This document shows positions 30,408 through 64,000 of a stretch of 64,000 nt of DNA, one piece after another. How positions within the stretch are numbered: position 1 is the first letter of the stretch; every line of letters begins with the position of its first letter. The translations under genes were made by a program, and so were the position numbers. The notes under the pieces are model-generated. The model saw only the letters and a program-made list of their open reading frames with translations. It was not told the origin of the DNA and did no database searches. Origin of the DNA: Yuukianura sp. NJ FZ-2021 (taxonomy: Eukaryota); NCBI GenBank assembly GCA_046563655.1, contig CM102287.1:744001-808000 (forward strand), read 5' to 3'.

Positions 30408-30408
30408 T

Positions 30409-31963: not shown

Positions 31964-31973
31964 CGTTGTCAAA

Positions 31974-34738: not shown

Positions 34739-34918
34739 CCTTACAGTCGACTGGTGATGAACTGTGGTTGCATTTTTAGTATCTGGAGATCATTTTCCGA
34801 ATTTTTGTGTAAACGAAATTCTACAACTACAATCACAGTGTGTAAATCCTTCTCTTGCAACTGCAACTTGAACAAATCATCACGAGGACAATCTGTGAAA
34901 CTTCATCCAACTCAAGAA

Positions 34919-35281: not shown

Positions 35282-35299
35282 GGGTAAGTTACCTTGAAT

Positions 35300-35956: not shown

Positions 35957-36048
35957 CTTTACTTCAACTTTTAATCACTTACTATTGGTCAAACAGTCAA
36001 ATTCAAACTAAAATTTGAAATCATTATTAAATTGGCTTATATTAGGAC

Positions 36049-40373: not shown

Positions 40374-40405
40374 TTTTCTCCTCCCTGCATGTGTACTGGT
40401 TAAAG

Positions 40406-41444
40406 GCAACTGAGCAGTGGATTTTCTTCAAAATGTTACCCTGCTTCACTCAAATGTTTGAGTTGCAAGTTCCAACCCACATTCGCTTTAGACTGTATGA
40501 GAAAACAAATCCTTCCAAAAAATCCCCCGACACAAATCGGAGGTTTTTGAGAAAGTGAGATGCATCCTCCCCCGCTCCTCAAAAACAAATTGGAAAAGGT
40601 TTAAAAAAAAAGCAGCATTCTTCTTCTCCTCTTTTTTTACATTGTTAAAAATACTAAAAAAAAAGAGTGAGAGAGGGGGAGCCCCCCCCCCCTGGGGGAC
40701 TGATCGTGCAACTTTTACTAAAAAGGGGGTTCCCTTACCGTTTCCTTGGGTTTTTTTTTCCCAGCGTGTCCACAGTGGATTAAAATCCTGCGTTTCTCTT
40801 TGGATTTTCTCCAGCGTGTCCACAGTGGATTTTTTCCTGCGTTCTCATTGGGATTTAAATCCCTGCCTAGACATTGAGTTTTAAATCCCTGCGTTCTATT
40901 ATTTTTTTTATTCGTGCGTCAACTTGTTTTTGTTTTTAAACTATGACTTGTTAGACTTTAGAAGAACTGCTTTTTGTGTAAAGATACATCAGGGTGGGAA
41001 TGAGGAGTGGGGGATGCATCTCACTTTGTCAAAAACCACACCTCCCAAAAAGCATGGTTTAGCCAGTAAAACTGTGATGGAAAGGTCCCATCTCAGTTCC
41101 ACGGGCTAAACTAAGATTGGGAGAAAAAAAGAGATCATCATTTTCTCATGCACTCTGAAAGTGCAACTAGGTCATGTTTACATTTTTGAACTGTAGGTCA
41201 GGTTTGTTTTTGTTTTTGCTTTTACTCGCAGACAGTGCAACTGCACTGTTTACATTTTTGAACTGTAGGTCAGGTTTGTTTTTGTTTTTGCTTTTACTCG
41301 CAGACAGTGCAACTGCACTGTCTGCAACTTTTGTCAGTGCAGTTGCACTGACAAAAGTTGGGTGTCGAAAAGTAGGTCATGTTTACATGTTTTGACCTAC
41401 AGGTCAAGTTTGTTTTTACTAGCGCCCACAGAGTGTATACTACT
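40406..41444 (-). repeat. Right terminal inverted repeat (1039 bp)
   Basis: Reverse complement of 24839-25877; the same 73-aa spurious ORF appears in both TIRs on opposite strands. Confidence 0.95.
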
Positions 41445-44400: not shown

Positions 44401-47400
44401 TTAATGGCGATCTATCCACACCAATGAAACTTGGGGTCCTGCAGTACGTTTCATAAGGATTTCAGAAAACTAACTCATTTTCACCCGGCATCGTTCCGCG
44501 CGGAGGTTTTTCGAATGTTCTGTTTTGAAACAAATTTTCATAAATAAAAGTAACGAGATGAGGGACGATACAGCAAGTGAAAGTGGGTTCCTGTAGCACT
44601 TTTTATGAGGATTTCAAAAATGTTGTTGCCTTTTACCCAGCATCGTTCCGGAATGCATTTCTTTTGAATTCTCTGCTTTGAAACATGAATTTTCATAAAT
44701 AAAGGTAACAAGATGAGGGACGACACAGCAAGTGAAAGTGGGTTCCTGTAGCACTTTTTATGAGGATTTCAAAAATGTAGTTGACTTTTACCCAGCATCG
44801 TTCCGGAATGCATTTCTTTTGAATTCTCTGTTTTGAAACATGAATTTTCATAAATAAAGGTAACAAGATGAGGGACGACACAGCAAGTGAAAGTGGGTTC
44901 CTGTAGCCCTTTTTATGAGGATTTCAAAAATATAATTTACTTTCTGTTCATTCTCACATTTGAATGTTCATTCTCACAAATTTAAGTCGTTTTGCGTCAA
45001 AATGGTGCTCGGCATTCCCCTGGGTGCCGTATTCGAACCCCAGACAAAATTCGAGGCGGAGCGATTTATCCCGACTTTTAAGTCCGCCCTATCCAGATTT
45101 AATGGCGATCTATCCACACCAATGAAACTTGGGGTCCTGCAGTACGTTTCATAAGGATTTCAGAAAACTAACTCATTTTCACCCGGCATCGTTCCGCGCG
45201 GAGGTTTTTCAAATGTTCTGTTTTGAAACAAATTTTCATAAATAAAAGTAACGAGATGAGGGACGATACAGCAAGTGAAAGTGGGTTCCTGTAGCACTTT
45301 TTATGAGGATTTCAAAAATGTTGTTGCCTTTTACCCAGCATCGTTCCGGAATGCATTCCTTTTGAATTCTCTGCTTTGAAACATGAATTTTCATAAATAA
45401 AGGTAACAAGATGAGGGACGATACAGCAAGTGAAAGTGGGTTCCTGTAGCACTTTTTATGAGGATTTCAAAAATGTTGTTGCCTTTTACCCAGCATCGTT
45501 CCGGAATGCATTTCTTTTGAATTCTCTGTTTTGAAACATGAATTTTCATAAATAAAGGTAACAAGATGAGGGACGACACAGCAAGTGAAAGTGGGTTCCT
45601 GTAGCCCTTTTTATGAGGATTTCAAAAATATAATTTACTTTCTGTTCATTCTCACATTTGAATGTTCAGTCTCACAAATTTAAGTCGTTTTGCGTCAAAA
45701 TGGTGCTCGGCATTCCCTGGGTGCCGTATTCCAACCCCAGATAAAATTCGAGGCGGAGCGATTTATCCCGACTTTTAAGTCCGCCCTATCCAGATTTAAT
45801 GGCGATCTATCCACACCAATGAAACTTGGGGTCCTGCAGTACGTTTCATAAGGATTTCAGAAAACTAACTCATTTTCACCCGGCATCGTTCCGCGCGGAG
45901 GTTTTTCAAATGTTCTGTTTTGAAACAAATTTTCATAAATAAAAGTAACGAGATGAGGGACGATACAGCAAGTGAAAGTGGGTTCCTGTAGCACTTTTTA
46001 TGAGGATTTCAAAAATGTTGTTGCCTTTTACCCAGCATCGTTCCGGAATGCATTCCTTTTGAATTCTCTGCTTTGAAACATGAATTTTCATAAATAAAGG
46101 TAACAAGATGAGGGACGATACAGCAAGTGAAAGTGGGTTCCTGTAGCACTTTTTATGAGGATTTCAAAAATGTTGTTGCCTTTTACCCAGCATCGTTCCG
46201 GAATGCATTTCTTTTGAATTCTCTGTTTTGAAACATGAATTTTCATAAATAAAGGTAACAAGATGAGGGACGACACAGCAAGTGAAAGTGGGTTCCTGTA
46301 GCCCTTTTTATGAGGATTTCAAAAATATAATTTACTTTCTGTTCATTCTCACATTTGAATGTTCAGTCTCACAAATTTAAGTCGTTTTGCGTCAAAATGG
46401 TGCTCGGCATTCCCCTGGGTGCCGTATTCCAACCCCAGATAAAATTCGAGGCGGAGCGATTTATCCCGACTTTTAAGTCCGCCCTATCCAGATTTAATGG
46501 CGATCTATCCACACCAATGAAACTTGGGGTCCTGCAGTACGTTTCATAAGGATTTCAGAAAACTAACTCATTTTCACCCGGCATCGTTCCGCGCGGAGGT
46601 TTTTCGAATGTTTTGTTTTGAAACAAATTTTCATAAATAAAAGTAACGAGATGAGGGACGACACAGCAAGTGAAAGTGGGTTCCTGTAGCACTTTTTATG
46701 AGGATTTCAAAAATGTTGTTGCCTTTTACCCAGCATCGTTCCGGAATGCATTTCTTTTGAATTCTCTATTTTGAAACATGAATTTTCATAAATAAAGGTA
46801 ACAAGATGAGGGACGACACAGCAAGTGAAAGTGGGTTCCTGTAGCCCTTTTTATGAGGATTTCAAAAATATAATTTACTTTCTGTTCATTCTCACATTTG
46901 CATGTTCATTCTCACAAATTTAAGTCGTTTTGCGTCAAAATGGTGCTCGGCATTCCCCTGGGTGCAGTATTCCAACCCCAAACAAAATTCGAGGCGGAGC
47001 GATTTATCCCGACTTTTAAGTCCGCCCTATCCAGATTTAATGGCGATCTATCCACACCAATGAAACTTGGGGTCCTGCAGTACGTTTCATAAGGATTTCA
47101 GAAAACTAACTCATTTTCACCCGGCATCGTTCCGCGCGGAGGTTTTTCGAATGTTCTGTTTTGAAACAAATTTTCATAAATAAAAGTAACGAGATGAGGG
47201 ACGATACAGCAAGTGAAAGTGGGTTCCTGTAGCACTTTTTATGAGGATTTCAAAAATGTTGTTGCCTTTTACCCAGCATCGTTCCGGAATGCATTCCTTT
47301 TGAATTCTCTGCTTTGAAACATGAATTTTCATAAATAAAGGTAACAAGATGAGGGACGATACAGCAAGTGAAAGTGGGTTCCTGTAGCACTTTTTATGAG

Positions 47401-48810
47401 GATTTCAAAAATGTTGTTGCCTTTTACCCAGCATCGTTCCGGAATGCATTTCTTTTGAATTCTCTGCTTTGAAACATGAATTTTCATAAATAAAGGTAAC
47501 AAGATGAGGGACGACACAGCAAGTGAAAGTGGGTTCCTGTAGCCCTTTTTATGAGGATTTCAAAAATATAATTTACTTTCTGTTCATTCTCACATTTGCA
47601 TGTTCATTCTCACAAATTTAAGTCGTTTTGCGTCAAAATGGTGCTCGGCATTCCCCTGGGTGCCGTATTCGAACCCCAGACAAAATTCGAGGCGGAGCGA
47701 TTTATCCCGACTTTTAAGTCCGCCCTATCCAGATTTAATGGCGATCTATCCACACCAATGAAACTTGGGGTCCTGCAGTACGTTTCATAAGGATTTCAGA
47801 AAACTAACTCATTTTCACCCGGCATCGTTCCGCGCGGAGGTTTTTCGAATGTTCTGTTTTGAAACAAATTTTCATAAATAAAAGTAACGAGATGAGGGAC
47901 GATACAGCAAGTGAAAGTGGGTTCCTGTAGCACTTTTTATGAGGATTTCAAAAATGTTGTTGCCTTTTACCCAGCATCGTTCCGGAATGCATTCCTTTTG
48001 AATTCTCTGCTTTGAAACATGAATTTTCATAAATAAAGGTAACAAGATGAGGGACGATACAGCAAGTGAAAGTGGGTTCCTGTAGCACTTTTTATGAGGA
48101 TTTCAAAAATGTTGTTGCCTTTTACCCAGCATCGTTCCGGAATGCATTTCTTTTGAATTCTCTGCTTTGAAACATGAATTTTCATAAATAAAGGTAACAA
48201 GATGAGGGACGACACAGCAAGTGAAAGTGGGTTCCTGTAGCCCTTTTTATGAGGATTTCAAAAATATAATTTACTTTCTGTTCATTCTCACATTTGCATG
48301 TTCATTCTCACAAATTTAAGTCGTTTTGCGTCAAAATGGTGCTCGGCATTCCCCTGATTCCCCTGGGTGCCGTATTCGAACCCCAGACAAAATTCGAGGC
48401 GGAGCGATTTATCCTGACTTTTAAGTCCGCCCTATCCAGATTTAATGGCGATCTATCCACACCAATGAAACTTGGGGTCCAGCAGTACGTTTCATAAGGA
48501 TTTCAGAAAACTAACTCATTTTCACCCGGCATCGTTCCGCGCGGAGGTTTTTCGAATGTTCTGTTTTGAAACAAATTTTCATAAATAAAAGTAACGAGAT
48601 GAGGGACGATACAGCAAGTGAAAGTGGGTTCCTGTAGCACTTTTTATGAGGATTTCAAAAATGTAGTTGACTTTTACCCAGCATCGTTCCGGAATGCATT
48701 TCTTTTGAATTCTCTGTTTTGAAACATGAATTTTCATAAATAAAGGTAACAAGATGAGGGACGACACAGCAAGTGAAAGTGGGTTCCTGTAGCCCTTTTT
48801 ATGAGGATTT
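41445..48810. repeat. Satellite DNA array, right part (same family, resumes in register)
   Basis: Same 543/698-bp units continue from the TSD to the assembly gap. Confidence 0.98.
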
Positions 48811-48910
48811 NNNNNNNNNNNNNNNNNNNNNNNNNNNNNNNNNNNNNNNNNNNNNNNNNNNNNNNNNNNNNNNNNNNNNNNNNNNNNNNNNNNNNNNNNN
48901 NNNNNNNNNN
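48811..48910. other. Assembly gap (100 N)
   Basis: Run of exactly 100 N, usually a placeholder for a gap of unknown size. Confidence 0.99.
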
Positions 48911-50036
48911 GGGCGTTTTGCTGCTTTTTTGGCGGTTCGTCCTTGTGGTCGGAGATAGATTGCCTTGGAAACGGTTGTTGTATTTTCGTCCGGTTTAGTT
49001 GCTGATTCAATTCCATATGTAACCTGTAAAGTTTTAAATAACATATTTTAAATTATACGATAGTTGCTTGTAAATATAACTTCAATTCGAAACATGATCT
49101 TTATACCTTTCCAAGTCGCTGCTTTGTAGATGATTTAGCAGCAATTTGGTTGCGCCGTTTGTTTGGTTGTGCAACCTTGACGATCATCTGTGTCTTTGGC
49201 GCAGCGGCAGCAAGCTCTTGAGTCAAATTCTAATAAGGACAAAACAAAGATAGTTATTTTATACAACCTCGTCTTTATTTTGTTCTTACCTTGACAAATG
49301 CTGGCTTCTTTGGCGCAATCTTTTTTTCGATGGCGATGAGTTTGACTTCTTCCTCGTCCATACCCTTTTCGCTCTCTTCACTATCATCCTCTTCAAAGCT
49401 ATCTTCTTCTTCTTCTTCTTCTTCTTCTTCATCGTCATCTTCATCATTGTTGAGTTTATCATCGTCCAGCAAAAATTCCGGATCAGATTCCTTAAATAAT
49501 AAATCAAAAGTTAATTATGGAATTTTGCGCAACTTTTTAAATAAGAGTTGTAAATCTTACCTCACGCTCCACTGATGCTTTCTTTCGCATAGCTTCCTTT
49601 ACGGACTCCTGATACTGCTGAGAACGAGCTAAGGGGTTAACCCTTGAAGTGGCTAACTCTGCATTCCTTAGGTCATTCGAATTTGGACTCATTTCGGCTA
49701 CCATTTTTTCGGTTCTGGATGGAACTTCTTCCTCTAGGTCCACGGTGTTCGCTAAGAACAAATTAATCAAAAAAGTAAATTAAATGTAAGTTTTTCAAAA
49801 TGAACAGCACATTTGAATATTTACAAAATAGCTATTGCAACAATTGAAACAATGAAACAATTGTAAAATGAGGGCTTACCCCTTTTCAACCTTTGGGTCA
49901 TAGTTAGTTGACACAGATAACTTTGCAAAATGGAACGATGGTGGTGATTGATGCAACTCGTTCGCTGCTTAGGAGTTGTTTCTGTAACTGAGTTGGAACG
50001 ATGACTGAAACTTAGGGAGCGGCAAGCCTTCATCAT
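48911..50036 (-). CDS. Multi-exon gene for a low-complexity acidic/basic protein, 3'-truncated by the gap
   Basis: GT-AG introns 49879-49752, 49560-49491, 49289-49230 and 49106-49024 join the ORF pieces in frame (...QRLKR/ANTVDLEEE...VERE/ESDPEFLLDDD[poly-D/E]...FVK/NLTQELAAAA...LGK/VTYGIES...). The 5' start is uncertain. Confidence 0.65.
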
Positions 50037-50588
50037 GACAAATTAAAGTATCTAACGTTTATGCCTTAGCAACAATATGACACGGAATCTCTCATTGTCC
50101 TTCAATTCGTGAGAATTGAGGATTCAGCAAATTTTTAGTTTTGAAAACTGCAATTTAACAAAAATTGAGTGATTTTGGACTTTGTTTTACCTGACACATC
50201 GATAATACTTAATGTTCGCTTTCAATCTCAGGATCAAACGAGTTCATAGAAGTCAAACAGAAACTGGCCAAATTCATTTAGGTACTTAAGGGAATACAGT
50301 TGGACTTAAGTACCCTAGTTTAAGGAAAAATTTCATTCTGGGAAGGCTTAAACGCAGCGTTTTTTCCTTTATTCATCTACTTTTTGAAGCCTTGTATTTG
50401 GCATCTCAAACTTGTTCATTCTAAAATACACTTCAAAATTTTGCTCTGCAATATTGCTACAAAGTGACTATCAGCGCCACCTTTTGGACAATTGTTGAAA
50501 GACTCTAGAACTTGAAACACATGTAATTTGAAAGATGGAGTACTTATCTAAATTCATCTGCTGATTAATTCAAAACTTGTTTTAAGAC

Positions 50589-53500
50589 ATGGATCACATC
50601 CAACCAAGCTCTTCTGTTTGTGGTGTTTGTGGCAAACAGAAACTTCGAAAGCTTGCTTACCTTAAACACGTTTCTAAGTGCCGGAGGAAAGTGTGCAAGA
50701 AACAAAAGTGTACGTGAAATTCCAAATTATCGGTGCGTTCTTTGTCGAAAAACATTTAACTCACATTTACGTCTAGAAAACCATTCTGCAGTTGTGCATT
50801 CAAGAGTTCTGCATTCTCAAATTGCAAAGGCTATAAGTCGAAAGATCCAAATTGGGAGGTCAATTTCTAAGAACAGTGAAACTGGAATACTTCCTTTCAA
50901 AAAATTCAGGCATTTCAAGGGTACGTCCGGACATACCGTCATCTGATGAAAAAGTCGGTCCCCTGCCTCAATTTGTATTTTCTGAAATTTGGAAATCAAA
51001 TCGAAAACATTATCAAAGAATGTCTGGTCCAGTTGAAAACTATCAAGTGCCAACTTTCTGTGAAGGTACAGTTTAAACGCTATTTATGTCAATCGAAAGA
51101 TGGAAACGAAATTTTTGAATACCAAGAGAAAATGATAAACTCGAACATGCTTAACGTGTTGAACCCCAAGCAAAGTCTTGTGCGGTTTATGAAAATGTGT
51201 GTATCAAAAATTGACCAGTCAATTAACATCTTTGAAGTTTATGGTTCGGGGTGGCAGTTGTCAAAAATCCGCGGATCAGACATCAGAGTTGGGAAATTCA
51301 AGCCATTCACTGGAGGTCAGTGGAAGCGACTTCCAAAATGTTTGGAATCCAAAAAGGCGACTGTAAATATTATGACGAGAGGAAATCGCTGTTTTAAGTG
51401 GGCTGTGCTCAGTTCCTTGTACCGTCCTGATAAGGAGACTTCGCGTGCCTCAACTTATCAGCAGTACGCTCATCTACATGACTTTGACTGCATTGAATAT
51501 CCGGTTTCATTGAAACAAATATGCAAATTCGAAGAAAAAAACGACGTTGCAGTGAATGTTTTTGAATATTCTCGCTTTGATGGAATTTTGCCGGTACGAA
51601 TTTCTGAGAAAAACTACAGAACTTCTCAAACAGCAAATTTAATGCTTGTGCGTGACAAAACTGGAAACAATTGGCATTTCATTGGAATTCGGAACATGAA
51701 CAGATTGTTGGGAAAACAAAACTGCAAACGACGTTACTTACAATTGTTTACAAAGAATTAAGCAGTGTTCAAAAACCTGTCGTGAAAGCAAATGCGAGAA
51801 GATGTGCTTACTTCTCAGGCATAAAGCTGAGTGTGAAAAGTTTGTTTTTCAAAAGGTGAAGATGCCGAAAGTCGAAAATGGTAGTCCACCAGTGATGTGT
51901 TTCGAAAACTATTCAAACAAAATGGAAGCAGGCTATGTTATGTACGCTGATTTGGAATCAATATTGAAACCCATTCAAGATTCTTCAAATGAGTCGTCCA
52001 TCACTAAAGAGAAACGTCATATCCCCTCCGGATTCCCATATGCTTTAATCAAAAATACCGGCGAGTTGATCTCCTACCGTGTTTACAGAGGAAAGGACAG
52101 CATCAAGATTTTTCTTGAAGATTGTTTAAAAATTGCGAGCAGTGTCATGGAGATATACAAACTGAAAGTACCCATTAAAATGAAACATGGAGAGGAGGAG
52201 ATATTTCAGAATGCTGAGAGTTGTCACATTTGTGGTGGAGCATTTGAATTTTATGGAGACAAGTGCAGAGATCATTGTCATTTGACGGGTAACAAAATAA
52301 AAACGCTGATAAATTCAAAGGTAAAGGTTGTTATCTTATTGAAAAATTAAACGAATTACTATTAGGTACATTTCGAGGGGCCGCTCACCAGAGATGTAAT
52401 TTACAATTCCAACAAGAGGAAATTTTACCTGTTGTGGTTAGAACAACATACGTTTGCAATATGCGTTGTAATTGTTTCATTAAATTTTTTATATTCACGC
52501 AGATCCACAACTTTCAAGGATATGATCATCACTTGATCATCAAAGGACTGAATGACATAAGTGCTAGGAAAATATCCGTAATTCCAACTAACACGGAGAA
52601 ATACATGTCGGTGGCAGTTGACTCCTTGCGGTTTATAGATAGCCTTCAATTTCTCAATTCCTCATTAAGTGAACTCGTCAGCAATTTGAAGGAGCAAGGA
52701 GAAGATAAATTTGCAATCATGAAGCAGGTGTTTGGAAACAAATATGAACTGCTTACAAGAAAAGGTGTATACCCTTACGACTACATCGACTCTTGGCAAC
52801 GTTTTGATGAAGAAAATTTACCTGCGAAGCCAAAGTTCTACAACACACTTACTAGTTGCCACATTACCGATGCGGACTATGAATACGCTCTGCATATTTT
52901 CAAGACGTTCGGTCTTAAATCCTTAGGGGAATACCATGATCTTTACCTACTAACCGATGCGTTGTTACTCGCTTGCGTGTTTGAAGAGTTTCGAAAAATG
53001 GCATTGAAGAATTTTGGACTTGACCCGGCTCACTACTTTTCGCTACCTGGGCTGGCGTGGGATGCTGCTTTAAAAATGTCAAACGTAAAGCTGGAACTCA
53101 TAACTGACATTGAGATGTATATTTTTCTGGAGAAAGGAATGAGAGGTATTTGAGTATTTCCTCTAATAATGTTTAATTTAACACTGACTAACTCCTAAAC
53201 CATTGTTCAGGAGGAATTTCCCAAATCTCACATCGTTATGCAGAGGCACACAACAAATACATGAAGGACTATAGTGGAAAGCCTGGAGATGCAAACCAGA
53301 TGTATATTGCTTTGTGGGACATGGTTAACCTGTACGGAAAGGCAATGGAGAGCAGGCTTCCAGTTGACAATTTTATTTTTTTAAATCAAGGTAGCGTTAA
53401 GCAAGTGAAATGTTGAGTAACTTTACATTTTAATATACTGATCTGCTTTAATTTTAGCATTGGTGGCAGAATTCAATATTGATGACTTTCACTTGGACGA

Positions 53501-54742
53501 CGACATTGGGTACATTATAGAAGCAGATCTTCATTATCCTGGTATTGTACTTTCATGAACTATTACTGTCTACTTTTGTTAATTTTTCATGATTTTCTTA
53601 ACCTTTTGAACTATACAGAAGAACTTCACGACTCACACCAATGCTATCCACTGGCTTGTGAAAAGACAACTGTGTCTTCAGAGAATTTTAGCAGCTTCCA
53701 AAGAAAGTTGCTTGACTGTCTTCCAATCAATTACATGGAATTGCAAGAAAAGCTTGTGTGCCATTTCCAGCACCGAAAGAATTACATCTGTCATGTGGCA
53801 AACTTACAATTCTACGTGAATCGTGGACTTTTGATTCAGAAGATTCACAGAATTTTGGCATTCCGGCAAAAACCATGGCTTAAAACATACGTTGAGTTCA
53901 ACAGCTCCCAAAGGCGCAATGCCAAAAATGAATTTGATAGGATGTTCTACAAGTTATGTGTCAATGCTGTATTTGGAAAAGGAATGGAATCTGTCAGGAA
54001 GCGCATGAACATCAGAGTAGTGAACAACCGTCAAACCGCTTCCAGATTGTTGTCAAAATTCCAATTTTTGTCGCATGATATTTTGGGTGACAATCTGGCC
54101 TGCTTTAGAATGCAGAAGTCATGCGTCACCCTTAACAAAGCAATTTACACAGGATTCTGCGTTTTAGAGTTAAGCAAATTACATATGGCACGTTTCCACT
54201 ATGACTACGTCAAGACCAAATGGGGCCAAAATGCGACGCTGCTCATGACTGATACTGACAGCTTGGCATACTCAATTTGCACCACAGACCTATACAAAGA
54301 CCTCGAAGAAGACTTAGAACTATTTGACACCAGCAACTTGCCAAAATCACACCCGCTTTATTCAATGGCGAATGCTGGAGTCACTGGAAAAATGAAAGAC
54401 GACGTGAAGGGACGAATACTAACCAAGTTTGTGGGACTCGCCCCCAAGTCCTACTGCTTTGTAGGTGAAGATTACCATGCGGCTTCTTTCAAAAAAACTG
54501 CCATGAAGGGAATCCCGCAAAGAGTTCAGCAAAAGTCAATATCATTTGAAATGCTGGAGAAAGTTTTATTAGACCAAAAAATTCTAGCGTGCACTCTGAA
54601 ATCAATGCGGTCGTACAAGCATAAAATTTACAATATCAGAACAACTAAAGCTGCACTACATGCATTTGATTCCAAACGCTACATTTTAAACGACGGCATT
54701 ACAACCTTACCGTACGGGCATTACAGGATTAATAAAAACTAA
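50589..54742 (+). pseudogene. polB: pPolB with 5 spliceosomal introns and ~3 frameshifts in the N-terminal part (pseudogene or assembly errors)
   Basis: N-terminal Zn fingers (CGVC..H...C; CVLC..H....H), GSGW, YADLES, DHCHLTG/TFRGAAHQRCN, IHNFQGYD, RGGIS, WDMVNLYG, KLCVNAVFGK, TDTDS. Introns at 52289-52365, 52437-52502, 53146-53210, 53391-53457, 53542-53618. Frameshifts near ~50700, ~50930 and ~51740. Confidence 0.88.
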
Positions 54743-54775
54743 GTCTAATGCTTTATTACTTATATGTGACGTATT

Positions 54776-55461
54776 TTAAACGAAGACCTTAATTATCAGC
54801 GTTATTTCGGAACGACATATGGGGCATATTGATTGGGTGGTACAGCATTCCAAACATGTTGCCAAATGACAGCAAGGAGCGTACATATAGGAGACTTGGC
54901 GAATCATGCAAATCTTGCACCTGATAATAGACTTCAAATTGTTCAATTCTATATAAGAAAAAATAATTATGAGTTCACACATAAGTTCAAACTTGCACTT
55001 TAATGATTCCTTTACCTGTCTCTATACACTTTCCGGAATCCATCTCACAAAGATCCGTTGTTGACGAAACCTACATTTTTCAAAATTTATCATAAATATA
55101 TATTTACTGTCATAATTTTGCTTCCAAACATTTTGTAGCTTACGTTTGTGACTGGGTGCTTTAGAATGAGATATGCACAGTTTGGAGAATGAATTCGGTG
55201 TTCCAACCATGGTGAATCGTGTTGACTCCAAGAACTCAGACACAGCCCACAGTAAAAACAAATTACAGCATCCTCAAACTCTGTGAAGAAGAATCCTGCG
55301 TTTGCTAGTGTTGCAGCAGGAGGGAAGCAATCCTTAGTAGAGGAATCGAAGCTGGCTAGCCTACTTTCAGTGGTTGAGTACTGTTCGAAATCCGGACCGT
55401 TGTTCGTTAATACTACTAGAGGCATGTTGATTACGTCTACTTTTGCAACTAGTTCTGACAT
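54776..55461 (-). CDS. iap: Inhibitor of apoptosis (one BIR + C-terminal RING), 3 exons, ~181 aa
   Basis: BIR: RLASF...LANAGFFF...DAVICFYCG..L..W...DSPWLEHRIHSPNCAYL. RING: CKICM...PCCHLATCLEC...CPICR. Introns 55143-55071 and 55015-54949 join them in frame. Confidence 0.92.
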
Positions 55462-55492
55462 GTTTGTACTATTAACTCCAATAACTGACTAA

Positions 55493-56344
55493 TTAGAAGA
55501 TGCTCCAGGCAGAGGCTGTGGCAACTGGCGTTTGATATTGCTCATCAGATGTATTACCACTAGTGGGAGCATCCGCTTCGTAATCGTCCATTCCGTCTCC
55601 CTCCTCCTCTTCGTCGTCGTGTTCCTCCTCCTCTTCCTCGCCCTCTTCTAGCGATTCGTTAGTGGCTGGAGTATTTTGGGCAAGTAGTGCTACCGTACTC
55701 AGATTTAACTTGTTCCGAATATGAATTCCAAGCAACTCCTTTTGTAAATGCACTTTCTTTAAAATGTAAATAAATGTACGAATTCCCTTTGGTGGAATGA
55801 CCTTCGCCGGAGGCTTTAGGACGTATGCCAAGAGTTCAATAATATTTGCACCATTCCTTGGTACACCCTTATACGAAACTTGGCCGGACTCATCCCAGGA
55901 AATGTCATTAAATGCAGACGTAGAAAGAACGTGCATTATTTTCATGCCAGGTAGCTGGTACTTTTTTGGAAGGAACTTAGCTAGGTGAGTGTTGTACAAA
56001 GCCTGGTCTACGGTCGTTCCTGCATCGCGTTTTATATTCTCTTCGTGGTTGGTCTTTGTACTTTTGGGTGATGGAACAAGCTTTCCCGGTTTAGAAACTT
56101 CAACTTGAAGTGGAGTGTGTATTAGAGCCGAAAAGTTTGCGTGCAGTCCCTTTACCATACTATTGAATAAGGCTAATTTGATGTCATCGGAAATAGAATT
56201 CCATTTTAGAATGTTTGTTGCTGCTGCTTGCTTCCTTTGGAATAGTTGAACTGATGCAGATTTATGTAAAAGCTGAGGAGCTCGTTGAATGGCAATAAGT
56301 TTTTCGTACTCCAGATGCGGTATCAGTTTCATTTTTTTGGACAT
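55493..56344 (-). CDS. Conserved Polinton protein of unknown function (283 aa, acidic tail)
   Basis: Homologous to 32336-33340 by shared motifs and by position downstream of the small basic gene. Confidence 0.8.
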   Translation of the reverse strand: MSKKMKLIPHLEYEKLIAIQRAPQLLHKSASVQLFQRKQAAATNILKWNSISDDIKLALFNSMVKGLHANFSALIHTPLQVEVSKPGKLVPSPKSTKTNHEENIKRDAGTTVDQALYNTHLAKFLPKKYQLPGMKIMHVLSTSAFNDISWDESGQVSYKGVPRNGANIIELLAYVLKPPAKVIPPKGIRTFIYILKKVHLQKELLGIHIRNKLNLSTVALLAQNTPATNESLEEGEEEEEEHDDEEEEGDGMDDYEADAPTSGNTSDEQYQTPVATASAWSIF

Positions 56345-56690
56345 TATAAACCCACAAGGTGAGTTAATGCGTTTGCTGCAAGACCGCCAAGTATCGACAG
56401 AGCTGGTGTCACCAACAGTGGAAGAAACCCACCTTTTTGTATTAAGAATTCCTTCTTCTTTTTAATAGAGAACTTCTTTGCAAGATTCCTGATACAACTC
56501 CTGTGCCGTTTGAGTTTATGTTTGTGTTGTTTAGTTAATGGCACATTACCAATTAACGTGTTTAGAGCAATTTCGGACAATGCTTCAATGTTGTCTTTTG
56601 AAGCCTTTTTTATTAACTTTTTCGGCGCGGAGCTTTACACTTTTTAACTTCTTCGAGGAACGTTTTGTTTCTAACTAAACGGTTTGTCAT
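56344..56690 (-). CDS. Small basic conserved virion protein, 1-nt frameshift at ~56620
   Basis: ATG at 56690 (MTNRLVRNKTFLEEV...). One extra A in the A-run restores RKKLIKKASKDNIEALSEIALN...QKGGFLPLL. Confidence 0.8.
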
Positions 56691-56704
56691 TGTAAAAGAA
56701 ACAC

Positions 56705-57430
56705 TTAACTTGGTAAGTAAATAATATGTTCTTCCTTTGGAAGAATTCCTGACTGTATTCGTAAATTATCGTGGCAACTAGGGTGTAAATTTAAGAACAA
56801 GTATGAATACGGCTGGCGAGTTGCCTCCTCGTAAGCGTTTAAAATTGCACTCGGCTTCCTTGGATTGAGTTGTCTACTGAGGTACATCACTTGTGATGGA
56901 AATGAGGGTCTTGCAAATCGTCATGTAATGTGTGTTGAGACGAATATCCCTGGCATATTTTCCTTGCGGCAGCAAATTTTGAGAAAGGAAGATGACGGAT
57001 ATTGACCTGGAATTCAAAAACGTTTTGTCAATTCTATGCAAATTTATCGAGGTAGTGCATTTGCAAAGTGATTTTTGCCTTACCTATGATGAACACCGCA
57101 AGTGAAGAGTTCTTGGACAGATTTGTCTTTTAATGAATCTGCCATTTGGTCATCGATGACTAGCAATGTATTATTAGCGTAGACTTCGTCCAATTTTAAT
57201 CCCTCCATGCATCTAACTCTATGGTCCATTGACTTCATGACGTCATAGCCGCTTTGATATACCTTATAGAATACAATTACGTCATCGATTCTAGGTGACA
57301 CCATCATGTCGAGGTTTTGAATAATCTTGCAAACAAATGTTGTTTTTCCAGACATCGTACCGCCTGCAACAATAAATGTGAATGGATGTTTGAGTTGAAT
57401 TTGATCGAAATCGTACGTATGGTTCTCCAT
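56705..57430 (-). CDS. Packaging ATPase with one intron (57083-57007) and a frameshift at ~56910
   Basis: GGTMSGKT, LLVIDD, GVHHR|SISVIFLSQN...IRLNTHY, then YLSRQ...AYEEAT..PYSYLFLNL in another frame. Confidence 0.88.
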
Positions 57431-58176
57431 TAGGTTGATATCTTCTTAAAATGTAGAGTTAAAGTCACTTGACCTTTGTCAATTTGTAATTCCTCCCCAA
57501 ATTCGTCACACGGTACAATAGAGATGATGTCAAACTCGCTCCTTGAAATCGGCAGATAAAACGGATGAGCAAAAGTTTGAGTGACTGCTTGTCCTTCGTT
57601 TCCAATTATGTTTACCATACGAAGCAGAGGCACAAGAGAGGATCCAACGATTTGAGACTCTATTATGTCACAGTATAGAAACATGTGATATCGCCCACCG
57701 AGTATATCCGGTGGAGAATCGGCTATCAAGTAAGTATTTTGCTGATTTGAATTGAATTCAAGCGTACCATTAAATCCCAAAATGTAGGAGAGTTTCTCAC
57801 TTATTTCGATACTAAATCCAGCTTCTACTTCCAGGATAACACGACACTTTGTTTCATAGTACTTCAAGTTGGAAGGGACGCTGTGCTTTATAAAAGATGC
57901 GTTGATTATGTGAACTAAATGCTCCACGGTACTGTAATGAAGTAAAGGAAGCACTATTTTCCCGGCAGTCTTCGCCGCATTATACTCAATGAGGTTGTCT
58001 TTCTCAGCTCCGGTTAGGGTTTTTATGGAGCACACATAAGTCAACTCAGTAAGCCCGACTTCGTATAAGGAAGGCTCAAGTTTTATTTTGGATGGAAGTT
58101 TAATCCTGTAGTTACTGGTTCGGTTGTCAGAAAAATAACGTGAGCCGTTCGACGGTAATGTAATATAGAATCCCAT
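57430..58176 (-). CDS. Minor capsid protein (penton)
   Basis: FYITLPSNGS..F.DN.TSNY..KLP..I.L...YEVGLTEL; MFLYCDIIE.QIVG...VPLLRMV; TLTLHFK. Confidence 0.92.
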   Translation of the reverse strand: MGFYITLPSNGSRYFSDNRTSNYRIKLPSKIKLEPSLYEVGLTELTYVCSIKTLTGAEKDNLIEYNAAKTAGKIVLPLLHYSTVEHLVHIINASFIKHSVPSNLKYYETKCRVILEVEAGFSIEISEKLSYILGFNGTLEFNSNQQNTYLIADSPPDILGGRYHMFLYCDIIESQIVGSSLVPLLRMVNIIGNEGQAVTQTFAHPFYLPISRSEFDIISIVPCDEFGEELQIDKGQVTLTLHFKKIST

Positions 58177-58177
58177 T

Positions 58178-59107
58178 TTACACTTTTAAACTTATCTTGC
58201 TGAGGTCTTGACTGTAATAGATGCCAGAAATTTGCTCACCAGAGAGATCCCTGACACGATACGTCACAGGAATGGAATTGATGACTTCACAAACTTCGAA
58301 AATTTCGCTCGTAAAAGCAGGCCAATAACCTTTGCCAAATATGTGTTTCGTTTTATCTAGGCGAACGCGGTCGTACAGTTTAAGAGTAGCTTTTGATTTA
58401 GGTTTTGAATACAAGTCCTTATAAGATTCCAACCATACGTCCATTTCATTGTATTTGTTAACGTCGCATGGCGCCACTTTCGTTCGCGAATGTATTTTAC
58501 TGTTATAAGTCTTTATAAGAAAAGGCAGGGCTTCAATGTATCTCGCTTGACCACTTTCAGTAAGATGTCTTGAGATAGCTGTGCATATTGTTCGGTTAAA
58601 CCGTTCAATAACGGATGAACCAAAGTCTGAAAAGTTATGGTACATCAATATGCCAAGAGACTTTGCCCACTTCTGGAATGTAGCTGACCAAAATTCTAAA
58701 CCTTGATCGCATTCTAGTGTTACAGGTTTTCCTTTCCCTGAAGAGATGATCCGCTTAAATGCTTGAATAACTTCGCTAGTTTTCTTTGATTTCATTGGCA
58801 CAGCAAATGCATACTTTGACAGGACATCAATTGCGGTTAAAAGACAAGAATAGCCATCGTTTTCTTCAGTGTACTTTGGCAAAAAAACAATATCAGCCTG
58901 CCATAGGTAGTTTATACCTGGTGATGTTACCCGTCTCCTGCGAAATTTGCACCTCCGACTCTTATGGCGCGTGTATGAGTCTTGAGTTTGTAAGAATTTC
59001 AATGCTGTAGAATCAGAAATACCGTTTAACTTACTTAAATGTTTCTTGCCCCCCAAATAAGTAGAACTTCCGATGTTCTTGTATGCTTTCGCAACTTGAG
59101 ATTTCAT
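58178..59107 (-). CDS. Retroviral-like DDE integrase
   Basis: WQADIV, IDVLSKYAFAVP, CDQGLEF, IERFNRT, YNSKIHS, FGKGY; likely ATG at 59107. Confidence 0.94.
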   Translation of the reverse strand: MKSQVAKAYKNIGSSTYLGGKKHLSKLNGISDSTALKFLQTQDSYTRHKSRRCKFRRRRVTSPGINYLWQADIVFLPKYTEENDGYSCLLTAIDVLSKYAFAVPMKSKKTSEVIQAFKRIISSGKGKPVTLECDQGLEFWSATFQKWAKSLGILMYHNFSDFGSSVIERFNRTICTAISRHLTESGQARYIEALPFLIKTYNSKIHSRTKVAPCDVNKYNEMDVWLESYKDLYSKPKSKATLKLYDRVRLDKTKHIFGKGYWPAFTSEIFEVCEVINSIPVTYRVRDLSGEQISGIYYSQDLSKISLKV

Positions 59108-59174
59108 TTTAATAAGATTAGAATGAATGTACAATTTGGTCACGTTAAATATATACACTTGTAGGAACCGAAAC

Positions 59175-59726
59175 TTACATGTTGAGTAGAACTTCTAAAA
59201 TCTCACAACACTGAATGATTCTGGTTACTTCTAAGTTTTGGGAGTCACCCCTGAAGCATGTATTATCGTAATGTAAGTTAATTGCCGCGAAGTCTCTAAC
59301 AATGTTGTCGTTTACATTTAGATCAAATTCGTCGAACCTGCTCAGAATTTTTTCGAATGATTCTCCCTTGACTCTGTGTATCAAGTAGTATAGCGCGAAC
59401 TGTCCACAAGCATCGCTATGCTCCGGCTGAACTCTAAGGCTGCTCATCCTTATGACGTCGGATTTGGAGTAAAGAAAATTTACAAAGCTAGGATTGTAAA
59501 AGTGAATCGGCATTGCACAGCTGTCGAAGAATTCTACTTCCCTACCTCCTCGTTTTTTGAACATGCCGATCCAATGCATTCCTGGTTCCTTGGAAGTTTG
59601 GGAATTTGCTACGACTGCGAACTGATCCGAAGTAATAACGTTTAATTTGTCGGACGGTAGAACTGCAGTTTGGTATGATCCGTTGATGCTCCTATCCAGT
59701 ATCTCCATGATTTCGGTGGTATTCAT
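59175..59726 (-). CDS. Adenain-like cysteine protease
   Basis: NSQTSKEPGMHWIG, EFFDS, VQPEHSDACGQF. Confidence 0.93.
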   Translation of the reverse strand: MNTTEIMEILDRSINGSYQTAVLPSDKLNVITSDQFAVVANSQTSKEPGMHWIGMFKKRGGREVEFFDSCAMPIHFYNPSFVNFLYSKSDVIRMSSLRVQPEHSDACGQFALYYLIHRVKGESFEKILSRFDEFDLNVNDNIVRDFAAINLHYDNTCFRGDSQNLEVTRIIQCCEILEVLLNM

Positions 59727-61024
59727 TGTGCCACAACTGCTTGTCGGTACTTGTCAATCTCCAAAACCCCTTGTTGTTCAGACAGAATAACACAGTGCAC
59801 TGATTTTTCTAGCGCCCTGCTAAACTGAACTTCAATTTTCACGCTCCCAGATTTTTCCAAATGAAGGAGTGCCTCGTTCCCAGTGGGTTGAAGAATATCA
59901 AATGTAAATAGGGCATTGCTCTCTTTGTAGTCGTCTCGCCCAAAAGACAGTCCAACATCGTGCCCAGCTATTCCTGTGCTCGTAAATAAAAGATAGTATG
60001 CCAAAAGACATTCGTTATTTGGAAAGTCCAAGGACAACGGTCTAATTGGTATAGACACATTGTTGACTGAAATCGAAATGGACTTAATGTTGTAATTGTG
60101 GAAACGAAACGGATTTGAATTGAAATCTCCGTTGAACGCCAAGCTATCCACAAATCCAATTATGATACGACTTGGCACAGTATTTGCAAAAAGGTTTTCT
60201 TCGAGGGCAGACGAATTTCCTTGAGCAATGGTAAAGTATTTCACTTCAGTGGACTTAAATGGGTATTGAGCAATTTCGCCTTTTTCTAAAAGTCTCTGAT
60301 GAGCCAATATAATGCTAGGAAATGGCAGTTGTTTTCGGATGTAGTATGTTGCCGATAAGAACTTGATTACTCCATCCTCACCCTTCTTCTTTGAAAAAAG
60401 GGCAAATGCATCGGAAGATCGTGTGAGACAAATGCGAACGTTCACGTCATTCAATATGTATCGATGTTGATTAGCTAGGTTAAATCTCAATTTGTCGATT
60501 AGCTCCAAGTCTTTCGATTCGTTGATGTAGCTTTTTCGTTTCTCCCATCCTAGGTTTGTCGAGTCTGCAATTCCACCAACTGTGTCTTCATAGTACAAAG
60601 CACATCCACCCTGGGAGGTTTTGTAGTCTTTTCCGTAGCAAAGCAATGTTTCTATGTACGCCCGATATGAGTAGCCATTATTGCTTGTGGACACAAGTTT
60701 TTCATTAAAATAAATGTCCAGTTGTGAGAAGAGGGCATGCATAAATAAATTCACAGTTCCAACTGTGGAATCCGTTCCTAGGTTATCTCCGGTCTTCTGC
60801 GTCACTTTTAGCTTGATCCGCAGGAAGCTGTCTGTCAAATCCAGGTAATGGTTACTATTCCCAGGAATCTTAAATTCGATTTTGTTTGAAGCGTCCTGAA
60901 CGTTCACAACTGGCTGATACTCTTCGTACATACTGTAGTCACACGTCGTATCTGTTGCTGGGATTGAAAATAGGTCGACTTCTCCACGAATAGCCGGTTT
61001 AGACCGGGAATGCAGCAAAGACAT
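59723..61024 (-). CDS. Major capsid protein
   Basis: IEFKIPG..YLDL, NLFMHALFSQ, YSYRAYIETLL, VPSRIIIGFV...AFNG...NPFRF, GSVKIEVQF. Confidence 0.93.
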   Translation of the reverse strand: MSLLHSRSKPAIRGEVDLFSIPATDTTCDYSMYEEYQPVVNVQDASNKIEFKIPGNSNHYLDLTDSFLRIKLKVTQKTGDNLGTDSTVGTVNLFMHALFSQLDIYFNEKLVSTSNNGYSYRAYIETLLCYGKDYKTSQGGCALYYEDTVGGIADSTNLGWEKRKSYINESKDLELIDKLRFNLANQHRYILNDVNVRICLTRSSDAFALFSKKKGEDGVIKFLSATYYIRKQLPFPSIILAHQRLLEKGEIAQYPFKSTEVKYFTIAQGNSSALEENLFANTVPSRIIIGFVDSLAFNGDFNSNPFRFHNYNIKSISISVNNVSIPIRPLSLDFPNNECLLAYYLLFTSTGIAGHDVGLSFGRDDYKESNALFTFDILQPTGNEALLHLEKSGSVKIEVQFSRALEKSVHCVILSEQQGVLEIDKYRQAVVAQ

Positions 61025-61037
61025 TATGCAAAAATAT

Positions 61038-61516
61038 CTAATTTGGTTCTCTTCGTCTTTGTTGGATTTGGTTTCGCTTTTCGTTTTTTGAGACTTTCGA
61101 TTTGGATTTCTTAACCTTGTTTGCAGAGACTTGCTTCCTTAGTTTCGCGGGTTTCCTCTTCGTGTACGTCCGCTTCTGTTTATTTCGAACACCGTTTCCG
61201 GTTTGACTTCCCACTACTGAATTCAAAAGATCCGAGCCGACGTTCTTCAAAAATCCAACGCTGTTTTCTTTCAAAGCCTTCTTTACCGACTGGCGTCCTC
61301 CCGCAATGCCACTCACAGTTTTAACTGCAGCTTCCTTTGCGCGAGGCAAAATCCACTTCATGATGATTGGCAATGCGTACTTGGCAATCCCGCCTAGGAT
61401 GGAACCAATCCCACCCCTCTTTGACGTACCCCATGAAACACAGGCATTCCATTGCCAATTTGGTCCCTCAAAGTGTTGTAGTAATGTTCGTGATTAAACA
61501 CGTACCTCTGCCGCAT
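61038..61516 (-). CDS. Basic core/membrane-active virion protein, 1-nt frameshift at ~61415
   Basis: ATG at 61516: MRQRYVF...YY...QIGNGMPVFHGVRQRG. One extra G restores GGIGSILGGIAKYALPI...QTGNG plus a K/R-rich tail. Confidence 0.8.
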
Positions 61517-61752
61517 TGTAGATAGATGTTTTCAGTTTGACTTAAGAAAGATAACTGAGAGCTAAATTTGGAGCTATGATTAATATCACTATTAAGTGCA
61601 CAATTGACTAACCGGAAAGGAATTTAAGCTGAGCTTTTAAGATGTAAACAGTTTCTAATGTTAAAAACGTTTATGTTTAAACCCTTGTTTTATAATAACA
61701 TTTTGATTATTTCGGAGTATATATCAAATTCACTTTGAATTAAACAATGGTA

Positions 61753-61823
61753 AGTGCATTAGCGCAAACGATAGGGTGATGGAATCAAATCGAGGAAGCC
61801 TGGGGTCGATTCCCAGGAGCAGT
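61753..61823 (+). ncRNA. Degenerate tRNA-like sequence (tRNA pseudogene, SINE head or Pol III promoter)
   Basis: A-box-like TAGCGCAAACG and T-arm/B-box-like CTGGG-GTCGATT-CCCAG at tRNA-like spacing; acceptor and anticodon stems are poor. Confidence 0.4.
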
Positions 61824-61833
61824 AATAAAAAAT

Positions 61834-62072
61834 TAAAAAAGTTAGGTTCGTACTCTATTTAAACTCTTCGCATAAGTCAAGCATTCTTCTCTCACGGTTG
61901 CCTCAACTTGTTGCTCTCTGTTCTTTGAGTCACTGTTCCATTTCCACCATTCAGGAGAAGGTGGAATGAGGCAATGACTTAAAGAGCAGAGAGCAACAAG
62001 TTGAGGCATCCGTGAGAGAAGAATGCTTGATTATGCGAAGAGTTTAAATAGAGTACGAACCTAACTTTTTTA
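61834..62072. repeat. Long imperfect inverted repeat (~110-bp arms, short loop); foldback/MITE-like or hairpin RNA
   Basis: TAAAAAAGTTAGGTTCGTACTCTATTTAAACTCTTCGCATAA... pairs with ...TTATGCGAAGAGTTTAAATAGAGTACGAACCTAACTTTTTTA. Confidence 0.9.
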
Positions 62073-62099
62073 TGTTTAAATGGAGACGCGGTGATTTTC

Positions 62100-62222
62100 C
62101 TTTTGACATCACACCAGAAACGGCTGAATGACATAAAGATCTTTTGACATCACACCAGAAACGGCTGAATGACATAAAGATCTTTTGACATCACAACAAA
62201 AACGGCTGAATGACATAAAGAT
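62100..62222. repeat. 41-bp tandem repeat x3
   Basis: CTTTTGACATCACACCAGAAACGGCTGAATGACATAAAGAT at 62100, 62141 and 62182 (third copy slightly diverged). Confidence 0.95.
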
Positions 62223-62834
62223 GTATTACATTCTCTGTCGAAAAGTCAATTCGACACACAATACCTGGGGTGACTTGAGACTCAAGCGGGGTAGAAGTGG
62301 CTTAGCTCACTCATCACTCACTAATTTTTTCAAATTTTCTGGTCAAATAACACTTGACCTTGGATGACCTCACTGACCTTTGGTAGTTGAGACACGAACG
62401 GTCGCCATTGTGTAGCGTCTCATACGCTAATCCCCAACCTAAATGACCGCAGCCACGCCCTCAGACTCCAAACACTGATCCGCAGATCCCTCTAACTACC
62501 AAGAATCAGGGTCACCGACTCCAACAACACATCGCGGAGATAAATATATAAATATATATTTATTGTAGCATAAGAATAAACTGATGAATAATCACTGCTA
62601 AATACAACATGATCTCAAACTGGTCATCTCTCCACTGATCTCTCTCTCACCACAGCACAATCCAGACTGCCTCTGAAACTCTATACAAATCCTAACTTGC
62701 TCTCCACCTCGCCTCTCTTCAAATCCCACAATTCTTCCCACAAACCAACAACATATCTCATCTTACCCCTACTCTGAAACTGTACACTAACCTACTAATA
62801 ACTAACAATAGGATAATCGATGAGCAGCCGCTTC

Positions 62835-64000
62835 AAATACGCTGCTTGAACAGCGACAGTTCGAGGTGCATATGTTACATTGAAGTTTCAGGAACACCCT
62901 TACCAACACTTGGTCCTCAAAATGTGGGCTGCAAAATGGAATGTGATCAGCACACTCCAGAGAGTGTGCAACTATTTACTGTAATGGAATTCTTTCGCTG
63001 TATGTGTATACACTGGAAGCGTGAGCCCTGTACAACAGCGATTGCAAATACGAAACCCTGTGTTGCCTAAAAGCTATTTTTTAGTTGCAATCATAACTAG
63101 TGCGTAGAAGCCAGTTGGCTTCGCAGCGCTGCGCGAAATAGGGATAATAAGTCGACAGTTGTAGGCAAGCAGCAAGTGGATATTTGATGTACGTGTGCAC
63201 TGTTGGCCATAAAGCCACAAAATAAGCAAGTTGGTCAAAGGTAAATACGCTGCTTGAACAGCGACACTTCGAGGTGCATATGTTACATTGAAGTTTCAGG
63301 AACACCCTTACCAACACTTGGTGCCTAAAATGTGGGCTGCAAAATGGAATGTGATCAGCACACTCCAGACAGTGTGCAACTATTTACTGTAATGGAATTC
63401 TTTCGCTGTATGTGCATACACTGGAAGCGTGAGCCCTGTACAACAGCGATTGCAAATACGAAACCCTGTGTTGCCTAAAAGCTATTTTTTAGTTGCAATT
63501 ATAACTAGTGCGTTGAAGCCAGTTGGGTTCGCAGCGCTTCGCGATATAGGAATAACAAGTCGACAGTTGTAGGCAACAGCATGTGGATATTTGATGTATG
63601 TGTGCACCGTTGGCCACAAAGCCACAAAATAAGCAAGTTGGTCAAAGGTAAATACGCTGCTTGAACAGCGACACTTCGAGGTGCATATGTCACATTGAAG
63701 TTTCAGGAACACCCTTACCAACACTTGGTCCTCAAAATGTGGGCTGCAAAATGGAATGTGATCAGCACACTCCAGACAGTGTGCAACTATTTACTGTAAT
63801 GGAATTCTTTCGCTGTATGTGTATACACTGGAAGCGTGAGCCCTGTACAACAGCGATTGCAAAAACGAAACCTTGTGTTGCCTAAAAGCTATTTTTTAGT
63901 TGCAATTATAACTAGTTCTTAGAAGCCGGTTGGCTTCGCAGCTCTGCGCGATATAGGGATAATAAGTCGACAGTTGTAGGCAACAGCAAGTGGATATTTG
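62835..64000. repeat. Second tandem repeat family, ~408-bp unit, ~2.9 copies, runs off the window end
   Basis: AAATACGCTGCTTGAACAGCGACA at 62835, 63243 and 63650; copies differ by scattered substitutions; no evident similarity to the main satellite. Confidence 0.93.

Follow-up and report, generated by a model that had tools for sequence, protein, structure and literature searches.

Putative spliceosomal introns at shared positions in polymerase and packaging genes of a Polinton lineage

The DNA analyzed in this study, referred to below as the window, is a 64,000-nucleotide (nt) stretch of eukaryotic DNA from Yuukianura sp. NJ FZ-2021 (assembly GCA_046563655.1, contig CM102287.1, forward-strand positions 744,001 to 808,000; coordinates are counted from its first base). 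It contains two Polinton-type elements. Element 2, which extends from 48911, the edge of an assembly gap, to ~62000, represents one member of a family of Polinton/Maverick (adintovirus-like) proviruses, and eight short inserts resembling spliceosomal introns interrupt its genes for a pPolB polymerase, a packaging ATPase and an IAP-like protein. The polymerase gene (PolB2; 50589..54742) lies on the plus strand, begins with an ATG at 50589, ends with a stop codon at 54740-54742 and has six exons downstream of 51739; more than 1000 homologues and tblastn colinearity support its assignment. The remaining genes, from the IAP-like gene through a small basic open reading frame (ORF), are on the minus strand. 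Element 1 (24835-41448), a complete 16.6-kb Polinton inserted in satellite DNA, offers an intron-free counterpart in the same window: its polymerase (PolB1) is one ORF of 1285 codons, its integrase, ATPase and protease-like genes are each a single ORF too, and the same holds for all of its core genes. Because the proteins of the two elements are only 22-42% identical, they belong to two different families.

Five inserts of 65-77 nt, each beginning with GT and ending with AG, were found in PolB2 on the plus strand at the positions proposed by an earlier sequence-only reading of this DNA. Intron 1 (52289..52365, 77 nt, phase 1) falls within HCHLTG/xxRG (a slash marks the junction), intron 2 (52437..52502, 66 nt, phase 0) within IPVV/IHN, intron 3 (53146..53210, 65 nt, phase 1) within RG/GIS, intron 4 (53391..53457, 67 nt, phase 1) within NQ/AL in a variable region and intron 5 (53542..53618, 77 nt, phase 1) within DLxYP/EELHD. 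The five tested inserts come from 286 GT..AG pairs of 55-90 nt in the PolB2 region. Four of them have a length not divisible by three and contain stops in the entering frame; the exception is intron 2, which is open in frame and whose retention would put 22 extra residues between IPVV and IHN. The inserts also differ from the surrounding coding sequence in composition, with a GC fraction of 0.23-0.29 vs 0.40 in the exons. Among the 2942 segments of 60 nt in 51739-54739, 135 had a GC fraction of 0.27 or less and all of these lay on the five inserts; in the intron-free PolB1, only 6 of 3799 such segments reached this level.

Removal of the five inserts from 51739-54739 leaves 883 codons without a stop, and the product is colinear with ten intron-free references (nine uninterrupted homologues of 1218-1275 amino acids, and PolB1). 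In a MAFFT alignment with these references, no gap opened at any of the five junction codons; junctions 1, 2, 3 and 5 are located in strongly conserved blocks, and junctions 3 and 5 in gap-free blocks of 25 columns. In tblastn, the high-scoring segment pairs (HSPs) of the ten references meet to within 0-4 residues at introns 1, 3, 4 and 5; at intron 2, an insertion of 22 residues is seen instead.

Similar inserts occur in two genes on the minus strand. The ATPase insert (57007..57083, 77 nt, GT..AG, phase 2, HHR/S) splits GVHHR/SISV; once it is removed, the sequence is colinear with GSHHR-SMSL in the element-1 ATPase, which is a single ORF. The IAP-like gene has two GT..AG inserts, intron A (55071..55143, 73 nt, phase 0) and intron B (54949..55015, 67 nt, phase 1), without which 181 codons are open from the ATG through the BIR and RING domains. 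Coordinates, frame restoration and colinearity thus bear out the earlier assignment of one intron to the ATPase gene and two to the IAP gene, and the accompanying statement that the major capsid protein, penton, protease and integrase genes lack introns also holds, each of these candidate genes being a single ORF that matches a single ORF of element 1. The suggestion that the introns are mostly in early genes is loose, since the packaging ATPase is interrupted too. Taken together, all eight inserts are GT..AG sequences of 65-77 nt with a GC fraction of 0.22-0.34 vs 0.40 in exons, and motifs similar to CTAAC, CTGAT or TTGAC, judged by eye, are present 15-30 nt before the acceptors.

Relatives of individual exons were searched for in a collection of 5.8 billion proteins. 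In the exon-3 search, which was limited to proteins of similar length, eight relatives were at least 64% identical (64-73%), and all of them were exon-3-sized ORFs of 169-223 amino acids. Six of the eight have their start at the codon directly following intron 2 (MHNF(R)GYDHH), and seven (P0121-P0126 and P0129) stop 2-8 codons past G(M/I)RG, the intron-3 site, at which uninterrupted relatives continue with RGGIS. For exon 6, all seven relatives with at least 66% identity are ORFs of 268-339 amino acids; in four cases the ORF starts with the first methionine of the exon, ~40 codons in, which fits an upstream interruption without locating or proving intron 5. An exhaustive HMMER search with ATPase exon 1 revealed that in the two nearest representatives (P0361 and P0362; 69% and 63% identical) the very last residues are GVHHK and GVHHR, respectively, whereas the two more distant full-length ATPases whose sequences were inspected (P0365 and P0369; 41% and 43% identical, 225 and 218 amino acids) continue past the HHR site. 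The lineage is therefore present in this collection as exon-sized fragments and would be scored as degraded, or missed, in agreement with the earlier expectation that ORF-based surveys would see it as fragmented.

A more direct comparison of intron positions was provided by L001, a 1017-nt metagenome contig that encodes one exon-3-type ORF and has 68% amino acid identity to PolB2. Along its length, this contig presents the acceptor ...ttag, followed by an exon 2 that measures 71 nt like its counterpart in the window, a GT..AG sequence of 58 nt with in-frame stops, exon 3, a GT..AG sequence of 67 nt and GA GGC ATT TCC (G-G-I-S). Its GT..AG boundaries at sites 2 and 3 and the intron-1 acceptor are identical in site and phase to those of the window. 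Nucleotide identity between L001 and the window is 65-70% in exons vs 49-53% in introns, the latter with length changes. The open frame of intron 2 in the window is probably incidental, because the homologous intron of L001 is 58 nt long and contains stops.

Relatives outside this group are uninterrupted. All 17 uninterrupted polymerase relatives that were checked (10 long proteins together with loci L002, L004, L006, L007, L009, L011 and L106) are unbroken at the intron sites, and PolB2 homologues of at least 654 amino acids are at most 47% identical among the matches listed (n=120). These observations support the earlier proposal that this lineage gained its introns. Of the best twelve loci in the metagenome scan, L001 alone is interrupted at the sites: one continuous HSP was obtained for each of L002, L004, L006, L007, L009 and L011, L008 gave one partial HSP, and L003, L005, L010 and L012 gave two HSPs due to a frame change, with no intron-sized gap. 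L001 is also the sole member of the clade in the metagenome scan. Protein P0246 (54% identical) is uninterrupted at sites 3, 4 and 5, and the eight relatives found in viral contigs are all at most 52% identical. Twenty relatives were found in genome contigs, and eight of these were checked; L106 gave one continuous HSP and the other seven were split by frame shifts without intron-sized gaps. It should be noted that at least seven Polinton PolB loci (L093, L095, L098, L100-L102 and L105), each with frame shifts, are on contigs of 25-56 kb assigned to one 'MAG: bacterium', which are probably eukaryotic DNA binned by mistake. On the basis of these distributions, the introns would be a shared derived character of one Polinton clade, with a boundary at roughly 58-64% identity in exon 3, and they appear to be inherited in position rather than particular to the window copy.

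We consider it highly probable that the inserts are genuine, inherited spliceosomal introns of one Polinton lineage. If they were not spliced, the window copy would be a decaying pseudogene with short AT-rich insertions whose GT..AG ends are coincidental, and the frame breaks in PolB2 and the ATPase (described below) would agree with such a history. However, all eight inserts have GT..AG ends and their removal restores frame and colinearity exactly, L001 is interrupted at the same sites and phases by unrelated GT..AG sequences, and ORF ends imply the same sites in seven of eight exon-3 relatives and in both close ATPase relatives. Random insertions are not expected to recur at the same codon phase in elements that are 64-73% identical, and we give the pseudogene explanation extremely little probability. 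Several points nevertheless weigh against inherited spliceosomal introns. Splicing is inferred from DNA sequence, all four read runs compared being DNA contigs, and the protein matches included none of the clade that derives from a spliced transcript, the top match of at least 654 amino acids among those listed being 47% identical. Introns 4 and 5 and both IAP introns are supported by evidence in the window only. The assessment of branch points and polypyrimidine tracts was by eye. In addition, what look like several lineages could be several elements of one host group. Finally, the three frame breaks in PolB2 and the one in the ATPase mean that the window copy may be dead.

The origin of these sequences was considered as well. 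Comparison of the eight window introns with one another revealed no kinship, as none of the 28 pairs scored above all 100 shuffles, and no match to an Rfam family at gathering score, and hence to any group I or group II intron, was obtained in 48911-64000. They are therefore not recognizable introners or self-splicing introns. Colonization of the provirus by introners, as in dinoflagellate Maverick-Polinton-like proviruses, would account for an origin that is otherwise unexplained. On the other hand, besides sharing no sequence, the introns are just 65-77 nt long, and inspection by eye showed neither terminal repeats nor target duplications, apart from 1-4 bases shared at the boundaries. Since the homologous introns of L001 differ in both sequence and length, any founder signal would be gone. 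Such an introner origin appears unlikely.

Additional evidence for the introns in genomic DNA came from read-derived DNA contigs of three runs of one sample (organism A), possibly the sample behind the window assembly. These contigs cover the region at ~99% identity, and contigs of the three runs are colinear with the window over introns 1-2 (X2 record 9) and over introns 3-5 (X1 record 2, 0 gaps). We assign virtually no weight to the possibility that the inserts or their boundaries are assembly errors. Although the window has a 100-N gap and the read contigs contradict its length at 50898, the contigs of the three separate runs carry the PolB introns colinearly with 0-5 gaps, and the unrelated metagenome contig L001 has the same architecture. 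Several copies of the element that are 80-99% identical were found in the reads of organism A, and copies ~87% identical in those of organism B. A contig of organism B aligns in one piece over the ATPase intron (56620-59085, ~87% identity), and a diverged contig of organism A has 533 letters vs 540 in the window across the ATPase intron and exon 1; both therefore keep an intron-sized stretch in the ATPase gene. In diverged contigs, a joint close to intron 3 that skips 67 letters (53149 to 53217) was considered as an intron-less form and rejected, since it is offset, has sides of 20 letters and reads as piecewise alignment of a diverged copy.

The four frame breaks were absent from the sequence-only reading, as were the acidic-protein gene (48911-49751) and the N gap. 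Three are located in the plus-strand stretch 50700..51745 of PolB2, near 50715, 50890 and 51738. The possibility that these are further introns was rejected: in tblastn alignments, homologues P0030 and P0001 continue across all three places without lost residues, and by eye no GT..AG pair of suitable length preserves the zinc-finger exon. The contigs of organism A differ in length from the window at 50898, and the net length differs inside 49908-50977 and 51274-52071. At least one of the PolB2 breaks (perhaps all three) therefore reflects either an error of the assembly or variation among near-identical copies. The fourth break, in ATPase exon 2 on the minus strand (~56905-56920), was located by alignment to the element-1 ATPase. 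Two diverged contigs differ there in length by two letters, and a third contig agrees with the window (by depth subtraction), so that this break looks real in the window copy. The window copy of element 2 is probably defective, at least in its ATPase.

The genes of element 2 gave the following matches. PolB2 has 1003 homologues of 654-2000 amino acids, including 'PolB [Parasteatoda house spider adintovirus]', to which exon 6 is 39% identical; its match to Pfam family PF03175 is weak (E=0.0014, below cut-off). The following features are all on the minus strand. The three-exon IAP-like gene (54779..55461) has BIR (PF00653, E=9e-20) and RING (PF13920, E=7e-9) domains. Two overlapping ORFs without a Pfam family (55496..56634) are pairwise homologous to element-1 ORFs at 32336-33714 (E=1.5e-6 and 6.7e-10); the pair, on the minus strand and in the same order in both elements, could be one gene expressed via frameshift or splicing. 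The packaging ATPase (A32/FtsK-like; 56708..57445) has two exons, 1273 homologues and matches on exon 1 to PF04665 (23.0 bits, cut-off 22.8) and PF01580, and both exons align to the element-1 ATPase. It is followed by a single-exon penton/minor-capsid-like ORF (57433..58185; 26% identity and E=1e-22 to element-1 ORF 31025-32029) and a single-exon rve integrase (58181..59194; PF00665, E=4.3e-16, 59.5 bits vs a cut-off of 32.6; E=2e-39 to the element-1 integrase).

The single-exon candidate for an adenain-like protease (59178..59753) is homologous to element-1 ORF 28520-29146 (E=5e-19). It has no Pfam match, its element-1 counterpart has a weak match to Peptidase_C5 (E=0.008, below cut-off), and a search of PDB sequences gave only a weak hit to a clan-CE deubiquitinase (E=0.06). 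The single-exon major capsid protein candidate (59726..61138) has 32% identity (E=6e-79) to element-1 ORF 29055-30557. Neither capsid candidate matches Pfam or PDB sequences, and both are homologous to element-1 ORFs; as a lead only, the nearest Atlas clusters of the major capsid protein candidate are 'F54H12.2-like' (score 0.98), with the PF21738 DJR-like domain in 14-24% of members. A small basic ORF (61041..61493) is conserved with element 1 (E=2e-11).

This gene content bears on whether the locus could be a domesticated, vertically inherited host locus that is derived from a Polinton and acquired introns on becoming host genes, as the earlier reading had suggested. Multi-intron structure is typical of host genes and IAP is a cellular gene family, and passages of a study of Ginger1 provide a precedent of a DNA transposon with conserved introns that gave rise to the host genes Gin-1 and Gin-2 (PMC2836005). 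However, element 2 retains a full mobile and viral gene set in Polinton order (MCP-like, penton-like, protease-like, integrase and ATPase), several diverged copies exist in organism A and others in organism B, the window copy has frame breaks, of which that in the ATPase is common to one read contig, and the locus adjoins satellite DNA. Domestication is therefore very unlikely.

At the left of element 2, a multi-exon gene for an acidic protein (48911..49751, minus strand) reaches into the N gap. It has no Pfam family, and 208 codons are open once its GT..AG introns are removed (49491-49560, 70 nt; 49230-49289, 60 nt; 49024-49106, 83 nt; intron GC fraction 0.21-0.27); a fourth intron is possible at 49752-49879 (128 nt). 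In organism B, the piece 49000-49679 is ~98.5% identical and has a depth of 552x vs ~22x for the remaining element, and it is possibly a high-copy sequence in its own right or else a shared cargo gene. The 100-N gap (48811-48910) conceals the left end of element 2, and no pair of terminal inverted repeats was found in 48911-64000 apart from a local palindrome. The latter (61829-62077), just past the last ORF, is nearly perfect, with arms of 47 nt at 96% and 66 nt at 89% and a 22-nt center, and could be the terminal structure of element 2 or a junction. Beyond it are a 41-bp tandem repeat in three copies (62100-62222) and a 407-bp tandem array (62835-64000).

Most of the rest of the window, bases 1 to ~24800 and 41450-48810, is satellite DNA on a 155-bp unit. 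The satellite has a higher-order organization, with 2.7-2.8 unit copies per block and blocks ~700-1790 bp apart, and both Polintons are in or beside it. Element 1 has terminal inverted repeats of ~1 kb, whose outer 440 nt are 100% identical and contain a 72-bp tandem repeat in two copies, and it additionally carries an F-box protein gene (26086-27684; PF00646, E=8e-7).

Based on these results, the following scheme may be proposed for the element 2 family. Its pPolB, ATPase and IAP genes would contain U2-type spliceosomal introns of 58-83 nt. The element would be transcribed in the nucleus by host RNA polymerase II, and excision of the introns by the major spliceosome of the host would yield mRNAs that encode a colinear polymerase, ATPase and IAP. 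Replication itself would be from DNA to DNA by protein-primed synthesis, with no RNA step; given such copying, introns would reach daughter copies unchanged and could persist as the family diverges. They would have been gained after the split from intron-free relatives, after which positions stayed fixed and sequences drifted. Because many outgroups are intron-free, gain is more parsimonious than loss in all other lineages. A broader proposal, plausible although we stop short of favoring it, is that a clade of animal Polinton/adintovirus-like elements depends on the host spliceosome for its replication and packaging genes, with at least five pPolB introns and one ATPase intron that are conserved, were gained de novo and were kept through spread between copies and host species. 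The idea that the introns aid expression or escape from silencing is speculation.

Introns conserved in the polymerase core would mean that the element is transcribed in the nucleus and depends on splicing by the host, as the related adenoviruses do. How a mobile element gains introns may also be tractable in this lineage, since the gain could be dated against intron-free outgroups that are 47-58% identical. If the interpretation is true and the clade is active or infectious, it would represent an intron-rich member of the Polinton/adintovirus group and a natural, datable system of intron gain that is invisible to ORF-based virus discovery.

In gene set and order (protein-primed PolB, rve integrase, A32/FtsK-like ATPase, candidates for an adenain-like protease and for double-jelly-roll-type capsid proteins, and an accessory IAP gene), element 2 resembles known Polintons/Mavericks and adintoviruses, and IAP homologues are mentioned for adintoviruses in passages of PMC8502044. 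Passages of the sources compared here describe the core genes of these elements as intron-free, which agrees with the sequence-only reading that such genes are generally intron-poor. Intact vertebrate Mavericks are reported to have 'intronless ORFs' and to lack introns, in line with Kapitonov and Jurka (2006) (PMC8097293), the core genes of nematode Mavericks are called 'intronless' (10.1101/2022.07.12.499685), and large surveys take endogenous viruses or viral genes as intron-free and use prokaryotic gene callers or plain ORFs (PMC10120064, PMC9356565). In contrast, element 2 has five putative introns in PolB and one in the ATPase gene, which would be conserved across its clade. A full-text literature search found no paper describing conserved spliceosomal introns in an animal Polinton pPolB or ATPase; the founding descriptions (by Kapitonov and Jurka in 2006 and by Pritham et al. 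in 2007), Krupovic and Koonin (2015) and Repbase were outside its reach, and a prior mention is possible.

Nematode Mavericks (wasp/krma) are similar to element 2 in that spliceosomal introns are carried and copied inside a Maverick, but according to passages of 10.1101/2022.07.12.499685 these introns are confined to captured, host-like cargo, whereas those of element 2 interrupt the polymerase and the packaging ATPase. In element 2, such cargo may have its counterpart in the IAP gene and the acidic-protein gene at the left. Dinoflagellate Maverick-Polinton-like proviruses also contain introns of the spliceosomal type (PMC11957031); in the passages concerned, these are repeated copies of introner families inserted mostly after integration, unlike the introns of element 2, which share no sequence, are conserved in position and belong to an animal-type Polinton group. 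Ginger1, as described in parts of PMC2836005, is likewise a mobile element that is copied as DNA and has canonical GT-AG introns (1-4) in its own transposase genes, at positions conserved between families, but it is of the cut-and-paste class and has no polymerase or capsid genes.

Reliance of nuclear DNA viruses on host splicing is not new in kind. Adenoviruses, which are evolutionary relatives of Polintons, have spliced E2B mRNAs for their polymerase and pTP, the DNA polymerase gene of chlorella viruses is interrupted by a short spliceosomal intron, and pandoraviruses, too, carry introns of this type. Like these viruses, element 2 would rely on the host spliceosome even for its DNA polymerase; unlike it, they exist as free viruses, and their polymerase genes have one intron or a few, or leader exons, whereas element 2 has five putative introns in the conserved catalytic core of pPolB. 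What is new is a Polinton/adintovirus-like clade with at least six putative core-gene introns that would be conserved in position, which is visible to ORF surveys solely as fragments.

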